DNA of 64,000 bases from the sequence record MT446390.1; one strand, 5' to 3'. Below are positions 8,748 through 62,887 of this stretch, piece after piece. Position 1 is the first letter of the stretch; every line of letters begins with the position of its first letter. A model generated the notes under the pieces. It worked only from the letters and a program-made list of their open reading frames with translations. It was not told where the DNA came from and made no database searches. The stretch comes from Escherichia phage TH12. The translations under genes were made by a program, and so were the position numbers.

Positions 8748-8980
8748 GTATAGCAATTTACATTAAATCAGAATCATGTGATAGTTATCTGTACACATAT
8801 GATAAAGATGTGTCAGAAGAAAAAATCAAAGACGATCTTAATATGGACCTTGATTTGTTCAGTCCTATTGCAGATTACAAACTTGCGGTCTCTAATAGTG
8901 AAAGTCCATCTAAAGAAACGCGTATTGAAGAATTTATGTCCGAATTAATGGCCAAATCATGGGACCGAGATGATGAGTAA
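8744..8980 (+). CDS. hypothetical protein (78 aa)
   Basis: ATGA overlap with upstream stop. Confidence 0.4.
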   Translation: MSIAIYIKSESCDSYLYTYDKDVSEEKIKDDLNMDLDLFSPIADYKLAVSNSESPSKETRIEEFMSELMAKSWDRDDE

Positions 8981-9428
8981 GAAAAATAAAGTGAAAGAAC
9001 TATCAGCCGGTATTATCTTCATGACAAAAGATAAAGAATTATTCATGGGTCGTGTAACTGGTTCTCGTCCTAAAGGTGCATTAGCTCATCGGTGGGATAT
9101 TCCTAAAGGCCGTGTCGAACCTGGCGAATCTCCTATCGAAGCCGCTATTCGTGAATGCGAAGAAGAAACTGGGTTTACACAATATGACCCTGCCTTCCTG
9201 AAAGACCTAGGTGAACATCATTACTCAGATAATAAGAATATTCATCTGTTCCTATATACCATCCCTGTAGAGCACGAGCAATTCAGAAACAGTGTTTGTA
9301 ATTCATATCATACATTCCCGGACGGACGACAGATTCCTGAATTTGATGCATTCGCTTTAATTAAACCTTCTCAATGGGAATATGTAATGGGCAAATCATT
9401 ATATAAGGTGCTCACTACCATCCTATAA
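8970..9428 (+). CDS. nudE: Nudix hydrolase (T4 NudE-like)
   Basis: Nudix box GRVEPGESPIEAAIRECEEETGF; sits just upstream of e as in T4. Confidence 0.8.
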   Translation: MMSKKNKVKELSAGIIFMTKDKELFMGRVTGSRPKGALAHRWDIPKGRVEPGESPIEAAIRECEEETGFTQYDPAFLKDLGEHHYSDNKNIHLFLYTIPVEHEQFRNSVCNSYHTFPDGRQIPEFDAFALIKPSQWEYVMGKSLYKVLTTIL

Positions 9429-14507: not shown

Positions 14508-14851
14508 CCAAAATGTTGGCTTTAATAGTTAGCTTGGTTTCATTTAACGCTCTTGCTAATACTACATATACTGATGTAACGGAGTATACAAACAGAACGG
14601 CGTCTGATTATTGTGGTAAAAGTCAAGAGTGTAAAGTAGATTTTTCACAAAAATTGTTATATGCGTATAAAGACGGAGAAAAAGATGGGGCGTCTAGTAG
14701 GTTCAAGGCGTCTACTTTAATTAAAAGATACTATAAAAAATGGCAAATATTAGAATGCTCGGTGGCGGAACCTAAAGATAAGGCAGCATGCAATTCTATG
14801 GTGGACCGTCTAGTTGACTCTTATACTAGAGGACTTGTAGCAAGTGATTAA
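14504..14851 (+). CDS. secreted hypothetical protein (115 aa)
   Basis: Signal-peptide-like N-terminus. Confidence 0.5.
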   Translation: MTKMLALIVSLVSFNALANTTYTDVTEYTNRTASDYCGKSQECKVDFSQKLLYAYKDGEKDGASSRFKASTLIKRYYKKWQILECSVAEPKDKAACNSMVDRLVDSYTRGLVASD

Positions 14852-15311
14852 AAACTATATCAAGGGCGATATTGTCGCCCTGTTTTCTAAAGGTAATAAT
14901 ATTGCTCATGGGTGCAATTGTTTTCATACAATGGGTGCCGGTGTAGCAGGTCAATTGGCAAAGGCTTATCCAAAAATTTTAGAAGCCGATAAACTTCAAA
15001 CCGAATTCGGAGACGAGACTAAACTCGGGACTTATTCGGTTTATGAAAAATATTTTAAGACCCATAAAGCTTATTGCTTTAATCTTTATACACAGTTTGA
15101 GCCGGGACCTAATTTTGAGTACTCTGCTTTAATGAATTGTATAATAGAATTAAATGAATTCGGAAAAAATAAGATAACAAAGCCTGTAATTTATATGCCA
15201 AGAATTGGTGCAGGTATTGGTGGTGGAAACTGGGATGTCATCGAAGAGATTTTAGATACGTATTCCACTAAACTAGAAATTGTGATTGTTGATTGGGAAC
15301 CATTGTTATGA
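14844..15311 (+). CDS. macro-domain-like protein (ADP-ribose binding/hydrolase fold); GTG start
   Basis: Motifs resembling macro domain: GAGVAG and PRIGAGIGGG. Confidence 0.55.
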   Translation: MIKNYIKGDIVALFSKGNNIAHGCNCFHTMGAGVAGQLAKAYPKILEADKLQTEFGDETKLGTYSVYEKYFKTHKAYCFNLYTQFEPGPNFEYSALMNCIIELNEFGKNKITKPVIYMPRIGAGIGGGNWDVIEEILDTYSTKLEIVIVDWEPLL

Positions 15312-56186: not shown

Positions 56187-56480
56187 ATGAAAAAGTTATC
56201 ATTGGCAGCAATCTTACTCGCAGTATCATGTGCACCAGCTCCAGTTACAGCAGGTTATGATAAAGACCTCTGTGAGTGGTCAATGACTGCAAATCAAGAA
56301 GATGTTGAACAACAAATCTTCTCTGATATCGTGAACATCACTAAACGAGACCGTCCTAATATGGTTAATAAAGTTGTTGAACAACTTAAGTCTGGCGGTA
56401 TCATGCAGTACAACTATGTTTTGTATTGTGACCCTAATTTCGATAACAAAGATATCGTAACCGAAATCACAGGTGAGTAA
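56187..56480 (+). CDS. sp: periplasmic Spackle-like protein (97 aa)
   Basis: Signal peptide then GYDKDLCEWSMTA, matching my recollection of T4 Sp. Confidence 0.6.
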   Translation: MKKLSLAAILLAVSCAPAPVTAGYDKDLCEWSMTANQEDVEQQIFSDIVNITKRDRPNMVNKVVEQLKSGGIMQYNYVLYCDPNFDNKDIVTEITGE

Positions 56481-56481
56481 T

Positions 56482-57132
56482 ATGATTTATTATATGCACA
56501 AAAATGCACCATTTAAATATGGTAAATTTCCTAATGCACAATGTTATAATATAACGCCGAATGAAAATAATAACGGATACCATATTGGTGTAATTTTTGT
56601 AATTGTTAAAGATAATGAAATCGTTGCCTGGGCAGATTTTAAAGGTACAACATATGATGTTAATCCTGTGCCTTTCACATATTACAATATAATGGATTTG
56701 GCATATGATTATAATTGGTTTACTCATGATACTCTGGCACATGTTGAAGGCGTAGGATTTGATATCTCTTATTCTAGTTATTCATTATGTCCTATGAGCC
56801 GAGCTCACGGTAAAGATGTATCATATCTTTCAATTCGGAAACGTGTAAACTTCAAACGTAGTACAGAGTATGTTGGTGGACTCTTTGTTAAAGATAATAA
56901 AATAACTCGTATTAGTTATCCTTTAAGTGTAGGTCAAAAAGATGTTGATGTTGATTTAGACTTAACTGAAAGTAACATTAATCGTATTGCTTCTGTATAT
57001 TTTGATATCGATGAAAAAATTGTAGTGTGTGGATACGAATTACCACCTGAAGAAAAGGTTGAAGCAATTGAAGTCGAATTAGAAATTTCTGTTGATGACC
57101 AAATATTTAATGCATTTATGAATCGAGGTTAA
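56482..57132 (+). CDS. hypothetical protein (216 aa)
   Basis: ATG 2 nt after upstream stop. Confidence 0.5.
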   Translation: MIYYMHKNAPFKYGKFPNAQCYNITPNENNNGYHIGVIFVIVKDNEIVAWADFKGTTYDVNPVPFTYYNIMDLAYDYNWFTHDTLAHVEGVGFDISYSSYSLCPMSRAHGKDVSYLSIRKRVNFKRSTEYVGGLFVKDNKITRISYPLSVGQKDVDVDLDLTESNINRIASVYFDIDEKIVVCGYELPPEEKVEAIEVELEISVDDQIFNAFMNRG

Positions 57133-60674: not shown

Positions 60675-61138
60675 TGGATGCTATGCTATTTAAAATGTAT
60701 TTGCTTGAAGCCAAGTCATTTAAACATATACCGGTGGAAGATAAGACTCCACTAGAAATAGCTATTCTCATTAACAAAAGTCTAAATAATCCGCAATATA
60801 TCGTAGAAGAATTCTGTAAATTGCAGATTCCTAAAGGTTACAAAATTCGTGTAGAGCGAGTTGGAGCTATTACTCGTTCTAAAAATTCTCCGTTTAGTCT
60901 TGAAGAAGGCATAAAGGACTTAGGTTATGAATCTACGGAAAATGCAGTTTATGTGAATCCTGAAAAGCGTTTAGACTTGTTTGAAAAGCGAGACCATAAG
61001 TATTTTGCCAAAAAATACTTTATTACATCATTAGCAGATTTAGTCCATTTGCAACGAGCTATTTGGAAATTTTTTAAGACAAAAGGTGTAGCACTAGAAA
61101 CATTCTCTGAACCAGCTAGTTTTTATCTAGGTGAATAA
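60674..61138 (+). CDS. hypothetical protein (154 aa); position of T4 mrh
   Basis: Position only. Confidence 0.45.
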   Translation: MDAMLFKMYLLEAKSFKHIPVEDKTPLEIAILINKSLNNPQYIVEEFCKLQIPKGYKIRVERVGAITRSKNSPFSLEEGIKDLGYESTENAVYVNPEKRLDLFEKRDHKYFAKKYFITSLADLVHLQRAIWKFFKTKGVALETFSEPASFYLGE

Positions 61139-61139
61139 T

Positions 61140-61319
61140 ATGGACCTTATGAGTATGTTTGACGAGCCTGAAGTTGAGGCTCCTAAAGTGCATCGTAGTG
61201 AACTTGTTGATGAACTAGATAGTATTATACAACGACACGGCTTTAGTTTACCTGTTGAAGCCCTGAAAGACCTTGCATCTTATTATGACGACCCTCCACC
61301 ATGGAGTCCTTGGAAATGA
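61140..61319 (+). CDS. hypothetical acidic protein (59 aa)
   Basis: ORF. Confidence 0.4.
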   Translation: MDLMSMFDEPEVEAPKVHRSELVDELDSIIQRHGFSLPVEALKDLASYYDDPPPWSPWK

Positions 61320-61480
61320 AAGAGAAATTTAAAGAGAAATTCTTACTAGAAATCAAGGAAAAAGACTTTGAGACATGGTACCGAATGGTGAAAGGGTTGA
61401 CATTGCTTTTTAAAGCATCCTTATTCATGTTAGAACAACCCGGTCCTGATGGTCCTTTAGTAGGAAAGCTTAAAAAGTAG
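61316..61480 (+). CDS. small hypothetical protein (54 aa), absent from track
   Basis: ATGA overlap with upstream stop. Confidence 0.35.
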   Translation: MKEKFKEKFLLEIKEKDFETWYRMVKGLTLLFKASLFMLEQPGPDGPLVGKLKK

Positions 61481-61509
61481 TTTACATTCCCTCCTCTCGT
61501 GTTATGATA
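61480..61509 (+). promoter_or_regulatory. early promoter (GTTTAC, 18 nt, TATGAT)
   Basis: Motif. Confidence 0.45.
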
Positions 61510-61535
61510 GGCTTATCTTTAAATGGAGGTCTATC

Positions 61536-62117
61536 ATGACATGTCAATCTGAACTTCAAGAACGCGAATACCTAACAAATCTGATTGATAGCAAATTCAC
61601 CCGCCAAGAACAAAACATTCTCTGGGCTTGCACTGATTCTAAGGAAGACCCAGATTTCCACTATGAATTAGACCATCTTGTCCGTAAGCATATGACTTCT
61701 ACAGTACCAGTAGAACTCTACCGTGGTGTAACTCCAGAAGAAGTAGAACGTCTTTCCCTTCTTTCTGTTGGATGCCATTGGTCTCCTGGACGCGCGACAT
61801 CATTCACAACTGATTTCAGTACAGCTCGTCAATTCTCTGGGAGATGGGAATATCAAACGTACACTATTCTTAGTCTTCGAAATGCTCCATTCATTTTTGA
61901 TTACTACCAAAACATGGTTAACATTATACTCGCTGGAAAGAATCCTAAGCATGTTATGGAAGAAACGCGTGTTGACGTCCTAGATATGATTGAATCTGAA
62001 CAAGAATACATGGTCTCAGGTATCTCTAGATTTGAGATTGTGGAAATTGAAGACTTAGAATATGACCCTTTATCTCGGTTATACAAAATCATTCATTTGA
62101 AAATGTTGAATTTTTAG
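61536..62117 (+). CDS. modB: ADP-ribosyltransferase (ModB-like by position)
   Basis: R-S-E type ART motifs (YRG ... TTDFSTA); tandem paralog of next gene. Confidence 0.55.
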   Translation: MTCQSELQEREYLTNLIDSKFTRQEQNILWACTDSKEDPDFHYELDHLVRKHMTSTVPVELYRGVTPEEVERLSLLSVGCHWSPGRATSFTTDFSTARQFSGRWEYQTYTILSLRNAPFIFDYYQNMVNIILAGKNPKHVMEETRVDVLDMIESEQEYMVSGISRFEIVEIEDLEYDPLSRLYKIIHLKMLNF

Positions 62118-62146
62118 TGTACAAACTCTTCCGATGATGATATTAT
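62118..62146 (+). promoter_or_regulatory. early promoter (GTGTAC, 17 nt, TATTAT)
   Basis: Motif. Confidence 0.45.
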
Positions 62147-62174
62147 ACTTTTATCAACCACAGGAGAAACCTAA

Positions 62175-62783
62175 ATGTTTATGCCGTATAACGAGTGTGA
62201 AATTGAAGAAATGGTTCGTCGTGCTCAAAACCCCGAATATCAAGATGTATTGCAGTACGAAATTGATAGTCAATTCAGCGACATTGAACAAAGTGTACTG
62301 TGGCAGTGTATGGAAAACAAGCCAGATAGCATCCAACAGGAGTTAAGTTCAATCGTTCGTAGAAATTGGACGTCTTCTGTTCCTGAGACAATGTATCGTG
62401 GAATCTCTAAGAAAACTATGGCCACACTTGATGATAAAGGCATTGGTAGTATTATTAAATTTGACAGAGTAATGAGCTTCAGCCCAGTGTTCGGTGTAGC
62501 ACGTAACTTTGCTTCGTATAATTTTTACGGAACATTTAATATGTTCTGCATCAAAGATGCACCATTTGCTTTCAACTTCCGTGAACATATGCTTAATATG
62601 ATTCTGGCTGCGCCATCTTGCGAGTTCAATGGAGCTTTCCCTGAAGCAACAAGACGGTCTAATGCTAGACTTATATCTGACGAATGCGAATTTATGCTCC
62701 CTATAGGGACTACACTGCGTGTAGATTCTATTATTCAAGATGGACGTTATACAATCTGGAATCTGTCTATTGTCAGTTACTGA
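62175..62783 (+). CDS. modA: ADP-ribosyltransferase (ModA-like by position)
   Basis: YRG ... SFSPVFGVARNF; paralog of 61536. Confidence 0.55.
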   Translation: MFMPYNECEIEEMVRRAQNPEYQDVLQYEIDSQFSDIEQSVLWQCMENKPDSIQQELSSIVRRNWTSSVPETMYRGISKKTMATLDDKGIGSIIKFDRVMSFSPVFGVARNFASYNFYGTFNMFCIKDAPFAFNFREHMLNMILAAPSCEFNGAFPEATRRSNARLISDECEFMLPIGTTLRVDSIIQDGRYTIWNLSIVSY

Positions 62784-62858
62784 CTGAATTAGAATAACCG
62801 GATGGAACTCAGAACCATTATAACACATAAAAAATTAAAGCATTTTATGAAAAAAAGA

Positions 62859-62887
62859 GTGTACACTACCTGAGGGCATGATATTAT
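62859..62887 (+). promoter_or_regulatory. early promoter (GTGTAC, 17 nt, TATTAT)
   Basis: Motif. Confidence 0.45.

Follow-up and report, generated by a model that had tools for sequence, protein, structure and literature searches.

EF-Tu and trigger factor are among the proteins modified by ModB, an arginine-specific ADP-ribosyltransferase (ART) of phage T4. The same enzyme modifies ribosomal protein S1 on arginines and RNAylates both S1 and L2 with NAD-capped RNA, and its inactivation reduces the burst size of T4 on a laboratory strain (PMC10468400). T4 ModA, in turn, completes the ADP-ribosylation of RNA polymerase (PMC10468400). Both enzymes are inactivated by point changes in conserved residues, namely R73/G74 in ModB (PMC10468400) and E165 in ModA (PMC11404850). 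The Mod family has become topical because ModB is able to join NAD-capped RNA to ribosomal proteins and because phage ARTs are emerging as counter-defence factors. No biochemical studies of the Mod proteins of Mosigvirus, the RB69-like T-even phages, were found in the literature searched.

The stretch of DNA analysed here, referred to as the window, comprises 64,000 nucleotides of Escherichia phage TH12 (MT446390.1) and contains two adjacent genes of this family on the + strand. The first, a ModB-like ART gene, spans positions 61536-62117, encodes a protein of 193 aa and is preceded by a ribosome-binding site (GGAGG) at 61525-61529. The second, an ART gene in the position of modA, spans 62175-62783 and encodes 202 aa, with a ribosome-binding site (AGGAG) at 62162-62166; a gap of 57 nt separates the two. 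An earlier note on this DNA, made from the sequence alone, had described tandem paralogs of about 200 aa at 61536-62783 that have clearly diverged from each other. The ORFs lie at exactly those coordinates, and the two proteins are 33% identical over 147 residues (BLASTP E = 3e-27), which agrees with the description on both counts. When a profile of the Mod family is compared with the six-frame translation of the whole window, these two copies are the only ones recovered, the next match having E = 0.05, nor does this search reveal an Alt or any other additional ART within the window.

Comparison with related phages indicates that both genes are maintained by selection. The 202-aa gene differs from its counterpart in phage phi25-307 at 8, 2 and 22 sites in the first, second and third codon positions, respectively, and the 193-aa gene differs from that of phage 55 at 7, 5 and 24. 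This excess of third-position differences points to purifying selection on both + frames. An antisense ORF of 159 aa (62349-62828, - strand) overlies the ModA-like gene and is most likely spurious, since the substitutions track the codon phase of the + frame.

These are known, already annotated genes for the ModB-like and the ModA-like ADP-ribosyltransferase of T-even phages of the RB69 type (Mosigvirus): more than 150 public genomes carry them, in many cases with ModA/ModB annotations. The 2.7 kb surrounding the two genes share 98.9% DNA identity with Shigella phage Shf125875, a Mosigvirus, and match 159 phage records, 157 of them at 90% identity or more. Approximately 150 deposited, near-identical Mosigvirus genomes (at least 90% DNA identity) carry the pair, many of them with the ModA/ModB labels. 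At the protein level, Shf125875 gp018 (“similar to RB69 modB”) and the 193-aa product are 99.0% identical, and gp017 (“similar to RB69 modA”) and the 202-aa product are 99.5% identical. The neighbours and spacing of gp018 and gp017 are as in the window, and only a few substitutions distinguish the genes.

The surroundings of the pair are likewise those of a T-even phage. The Shf125875 region runs primase, gp56, soc, mrh, small ORFs, modB, modA, srd, dda.1, dda and dexA, and the order in the window (56, soc, mrh, modB, modA, srd, dda.1, dda) is that of T4. As presented, the window is oriented in the direction of early transcription, which is reversed relative to the T4 map. The identity of mrh is independently confirmed by a match of its product to Pfam T4_MRH (E = 1e-37). 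Between mrh and the ModB-like gene lie two small ORFs on the + strand, at 61131-61319 (62 aa) and 61301-61480 (59 aa), neither of which has a Pfam match. In Shf125875 the corresponding annotated ORFs, which are a little shorter, carry the labels “similar to RB69 modA.2” and “RB69ORF020c”.

Alignment with homologs locates the catalytic residues of an R-S-E transferase in each protein. In the 193-aa protein these are R63 (61722-61724), S89 (61800-61802) and E155-Q-E157 (61998-62006); in the 202-aa protein they are R75 (62397-62399), S101 (62475-62477) and E170-C-E172 (62682-62690), all encoded on the + strand. When the two proteins are aligned with T4 ModA, T4 ModB and 16 other homologs, the columns that do not vary include the Arg-Gly of the Y-R-G motif, the serine of S-F-[ST] and the two glutamates of E-x-E. 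The arginine within YRG, the Ser/Thr-rich segment and the acidic residues to which the earlier note had drawn attention (R63/R75, S89-F-T-T/S101-F-S and E155-Q-E157/E170-C-E172) are confirmed, and each falls in an invariant column. Moreover, the R-S-E-x-E columns of both proteins coincide with T4 ModB R73/G74 and T4 ModA E165, the residues whose mutation inactivates the T4 enzymes.

Profile searches place both proteins in the same family. The PHROG family phrog_832, “RNA polymerase ADP-ribosylase”, matches the 193-aa protein with E = 1.9e-37 and the 202-aa protein with E = 1e-37, and a precomputed assignment to PF26816 is attached in the protein database to all close homologs of both. Direct scanning of Pfam-A returned no ART family for either protein, the one hit being a sub-threshold match to DUF6597; the ADPrib_exo_Tox family (PF03496) gave no match at E ≤ 1 for either protein, and a scan of NCBIfam gave nothing for the two. 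The family is small, in that a profile search of 1.84 billion representative proteins produced 100 matches at E ≤ 1e-3, of which 42 were at E ≤ 1e-10. Its distant members bear ADPrib_exo_Tox (PF03496) domains, and the YRG, S-x-S and E-x-E motifs are in register between the Mod family and the ADPrib_exo_Tox proteins.

Searched by sequence against the PDB, the 202-aa protein had no match and the 193-aa protein had only spurious ones to nucleophosmin (E ≥ 0.06); a Mod-family structure is thus not detectable there by sequence. AlphaFold2 models of the 193-aa and 202-aa proteins are confident, with pLDDT values of 88.3 and 94.3, respectively, and when each model is compared with the PDB using Foldseek, every one of the 50 matches listed is an R-S-E ART or a very close relative. 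Among the matches listed are C3bot, C3larvin, Certhrax, iota Ia, CDTa, HopU1, XopAI, Vis and Tre1-type toxins, with E-values of 5e-6 to 1e-4 and a probability of 1.00; because TM-scores are moderate (0.37-0.55) and rmsd is high, the resemblance is one of overall fold only. The earlier note had made its assignment depend on a predicted ART fold, and such a fold is predicted for both proteins. Its central proposal, that these genes encode tandem, ModA/ModB-like R-S-E ARTs, is borne out by the family HMMs, the catalytic motif, the predicted fold and the T4-type synteny.

Overall, it is highly probable (roughly 0.9) that the pair represents the Mosigvirus members of the T-even Mod family, that is, small, single-domain, arginine-specific mono-ADP-ribosyltransferases acting on host proteins. 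What has been demonstrated for the pair is homology, synteny, an intact catalytic motif, purifying selection and a predicted ART fold. This fold is C3/VIP2-like and of the R-S-E type, and NAD+ is expected to bind within it: the arginine of Y-R-G together with the serine of S-F-[ST] would hold NAD+, and the second Glu of E-x-E would catalyse the transfer. R-S-E transferases that are specific for arginine typically have E-x-E where others have Q-x-E, and the E-x-E of the TH12 proteins accordingly suggests specificity for arginine; host proteins would thereby come to carry ADP-ribose on arginine side chains. By analogy with the T4 enzymes, a ModA would modify the alpha subunit of RNA polymerase, and a ModB would modify translation factors, among them ribosomal protein S1, EF-Tu and trigger factor. 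A ModB-type enzyme may, on the same analogy, also accept NAD-capped RNA as a substrate (“RNAylation”). Host proteins are most likely tagged with ADP-ribose by the pair early in infection, if the T4 enzymes are a guide. We infer for the two proteins enzymatic activity, arginine specificity, early timing and, above all, the host targets of each paralog.

The early timing is suggested by promoter-like sites on the + strand upstream of each gene. An intergenic site at 61481-61508, upstream of the ModB-like gene, consists of (G)TTTACA, a 16-nt spacer and an extended -10 element, TGnTATGAT, and matches at 10 of 12 positions. Another, at 62118-62146 between the ModB-like and ModA-like genes, consists of (G)TGTACA, a 17-nt spacer and TGnTATTAT, and a similar site precedes srd at 62860-62887. 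The shared pattern is G-T-(T/G)-T-A-C-A, a spacer of 16-17 nt and the extended -10 element TGnTAT(G/T)AT. Sites of this form resemble the T4 early promoter consensus, and in a promoter scan of the region promoter-like sites were no more numerous than in shuffled sequences. The ModB-like, ModA-like and srd genes each appear to have a putative early promoter of their own, a function that we infer from sequence. The unmodified RNA polymerase of the host would then probably transcribe each ART gene early in infection, starting from a separate promoter of the T4-early type.

The assignment of the two paralogs to ModA and ModB is a separate matter from their membership in the family. Alignment with T4 ModA and ModB, which the earlier note had proposed as a check, retains R, S and E-x-E in both TH12 proteins and gives clear similarity throughout. 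The 193-aa protein is 38% identical to T4 ModB (90 bits, E = 1e-27) and 26% identical to T4 ModA (41 bits, E = 2e-9), and the 202-aa protein is 31% identical to T4 ModB (106 bits, E = 2e-33) and 30% identical to T4 ModA (71 bits, E = 3e-20), such that both score higher in BLASTP against T4 ModB than against T4 ModA. In a neighbour-joining tree, each paralog belongs to a clade of its own (bootstrap support of 95% for the 202-aa protein and 99% for the 193-aa protein), and groupings with the T4 proteins receive 12% (202-aa with ModA), 1% (193-aa with ModB) and 2% (202-aa with ModB). T4 ModA lies on a long branch, and the deep branches of the tree are poorly supported. Net charge and pI do not separate ModA-like from ModB-like proteins either, all four being acidic. 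Phylogeny thus assigns neither paralog to T4 ModA or T4 ModB, and the labels rest on synteny, to which a few shared local motifs can be added. More distant relatives differ in copy number: phage UP19 and Dhakavirus CLBP2 (about 57-61% identity) have two copies each, adjacent in UP19, and relatives from Klebsiella, Serratia and Yersinia have one matching place each among the matches listed.

It follows that the “ModA” and “ModB” labels of RB69-type phages, and the target notes copied with them into GenBank, reflect gene order rather than resolvable sequence orthology, and that target assignments copied from T4 may be wrong. As neither copy groups with its T4 namesake and both look closer to ModB, it is conceivable, although unlikely, that the two Mosigvirus enzymes do not correspond in function to T4 ModA and ModB and divide their host targets differently. 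If so, the translation apparatus may be a target of both, both may carry out RNAylation, or a defence system may be the target of one of them.

The ModB-like gene, which is intact in the window, has been lost from some natural isolates. In Shigella phage phi25-307, a 508-bp deletion (corresponding to 61575-62083 of the window) removes nearly the whole gene; what is left is the promoter, together with 44 nt from the start of the gene and ~35 nt from its end. The deletion runs between two ACAAA microhomologies, and the remnant is a frameshifted reading frame of 18 codons. An identical junction is present in PHB12, EP02SG, SSE1, F2, S143_2, PNJ-9 and HY126. The interior of the ModB-like gene matches 138 records, 131 of them at 80% coverage or more, as compared with 153 records for the interior of the ModA-like gene, from which it can be estimated that the ModB-like gene is missing from about 10-14% of these genomes. 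The gene is evidently not needed for growth on the propagation hosts of the isolates that lack it, and these isolates could serve as ready-made knock-outs. Were the Mosigvirus pair not equivalent to its T4 namesakes, the recurrent deletion would mark a conditionally useful effector, for example one involved in counter-defence.

This pattern of loss is also what would be expected of a conditionally useful accessory gene if the paralogs were mainly counter-defence effectors, ADP-ribosylating components of host immunity and mattering only on hosts that carry the corresponding defence. In keeping with such a role, T4 Alt is needed to evade Mokosh type I in HIDEN-SEQ screens, and a ModA orthologue from phage Bas37 is named in the figure legend of a Mokosh type I screen. 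Bas37 is described as a close relative of T4, and we take it not to be a Mosigvirus. Host-interaction genes are present as well, with srd and mrh in the neighbourhood of the pair and orthologues of AdfA and Tk.4 elsewhere in the window. However, this support does not come directly from the TH12 proteins, and an inactive ModB mutant of T4 already has a reduced burst on a laboratory strain, which argues for a general role (PMC10468400). A chiefly counter-defensive function seems improbable on balance, and it would be compatible with, rather than exclusive of, arginine-specific ADP-ribosylation of host proteins by Mod-family enzymes.

A different connection to ADP-ribose had been drawn in the earlier note, in which the two ARTs and a macro-domain protein encoded near position 14844 were seen as a toolkit for writing and erasing ADP-ribosylation. 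The ORF in question (14844-15311, + strand) has a GTG start, overlaps the end of vs and lies between vs and tk. It does contain a Macro domain (PF01661, E = 1.3e-6, above the gathering score) and shares its strand with the two ART genes. At 85% identity it is also the orthologue of T4 Tk.4, and its best NCBIfam match, which falls below the model cut-off, is to the DarG macrodomain. The ORF is situated 47 kb from the ART genes, within the tk-vs cluster, and is not genomically coupled to them. To our knowledge, macrodomains are not usual erasers of Arg N-glycosidic ADP-ribose. The marks made by ModB are of precisely this type, being Arg N-glycosides that are cleaved by ARH1 and not by ARH3 (PMC10468400).

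The function proposed for Tk.4 in T4 is directed elsewhere. [quoted passage not shown] More generally, a survey of viral NAD and ADP-ribose systems argues that phage Macro domains mostly counter host ADP-ribose-based immunity (PMC9503650). That the protein at 14844-15311 removes the marks written by the two ARTs and so renders them reversible is thus very improbable, and this part of the earlier note is not supported.

Further genes in the window bear on the same chemistry. An orthologue of AdfA (anti-DarT factor A, gene 61.2) is encoded at 56473-57132 on the + strand (Pfam PF23813, E = 1.4e-117). Its ORF is listed from a GTG, and the primers used for RB69 adfA imply a start at the internal Met of “MHKNAPFK”, at about 56494 (PMC11257639). 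A NudE-type Nudix hydrolase, another enzyme related to nucleotides or ADP-ribose, is encoded next to the lysozyme gene e at 8970-9428 on the + strand (Pfam NUDIX, E = 6e-16). Given AdfA and NudE in the window and the reported anti-DarTG2 role of T4 Tk.4, the ADP-ribose repertoire of the phage looks like a combination of offensive ARTs and defensive removers of host-made DNA marks, rather than a self-contained write/erase circuit.

It is most doubtful that one copy is a catalytically dead pseudo-enzyme acting solely by binding a host protein. In favour of such a reading, the two copies have diverged strongly (33% identity), the E-C-E motif of the 202-aa protein contains an unusual Cys, and natural isolates can do without the ModB-like copy. 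Against it, the Arg, the Ser and the two Glu do not vary within either clade, the central position of E-x-E plays no catalytic part in R-S-E ARTs, and the predicted models of both proteins keep the full ART fold at high confidence.

Several described systems can be set beside the TH12 pair, regarded as arginine-specific Mod-family transferases. Writer and eraser pairs such as DarT-DarG or sirtuin-macro operons have coupled genes and a match between the linkage that is made and the linkage that is removed, and neither property is apparent for the TH12 ARTs and the macro-domain ORF. The R-S-E toxins of the C3/VIP2/iota type (ADPrib_exo_Tox, PF03496) share the predicted fold and the catalytic triad of the TH12 proteins, with 8-18% sequence identity in structural alignments; whereas those toxins are secreted, the TH12 proteins are not, have no translocation partner and would be phage early proteins acting inside the infected cell.

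The T4 enzymes are much nearer relatives. T4 ModB (NP_049636) and the 193-aa gene have in common their family, the R-S-E-x-E motif (R73 and E171-Q-E173 in T4), the genomic slot and a similar size. In T4 ModB there is an insertion of ~5-8 residues before the E-x-E helix, which is absent from both TH12 proteins. T4 ModA (NP_049635) belongs to the same family and has the same motif (R72 and E163-Q-E165 in T4), and the 202-aa gene resides in the modA slot, just upstream of srd. Local features shared by T4 ModA and the 202-aa protein include “FNF”, “FP” before the conserved Arg and a C-terminal “YTI”. In T4, modB and modA overlap by 4 nt and leave no gap for a promoter, whereas the TH12 genes are 57 nt apart; the putative separate promoter of the second TH12 gene is thus a small organisational difference between the two phages. 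Finally, ModB (AAP75921) and ModA (AAP75920) of RB69 are essentially the same genes as the pair in TH12.
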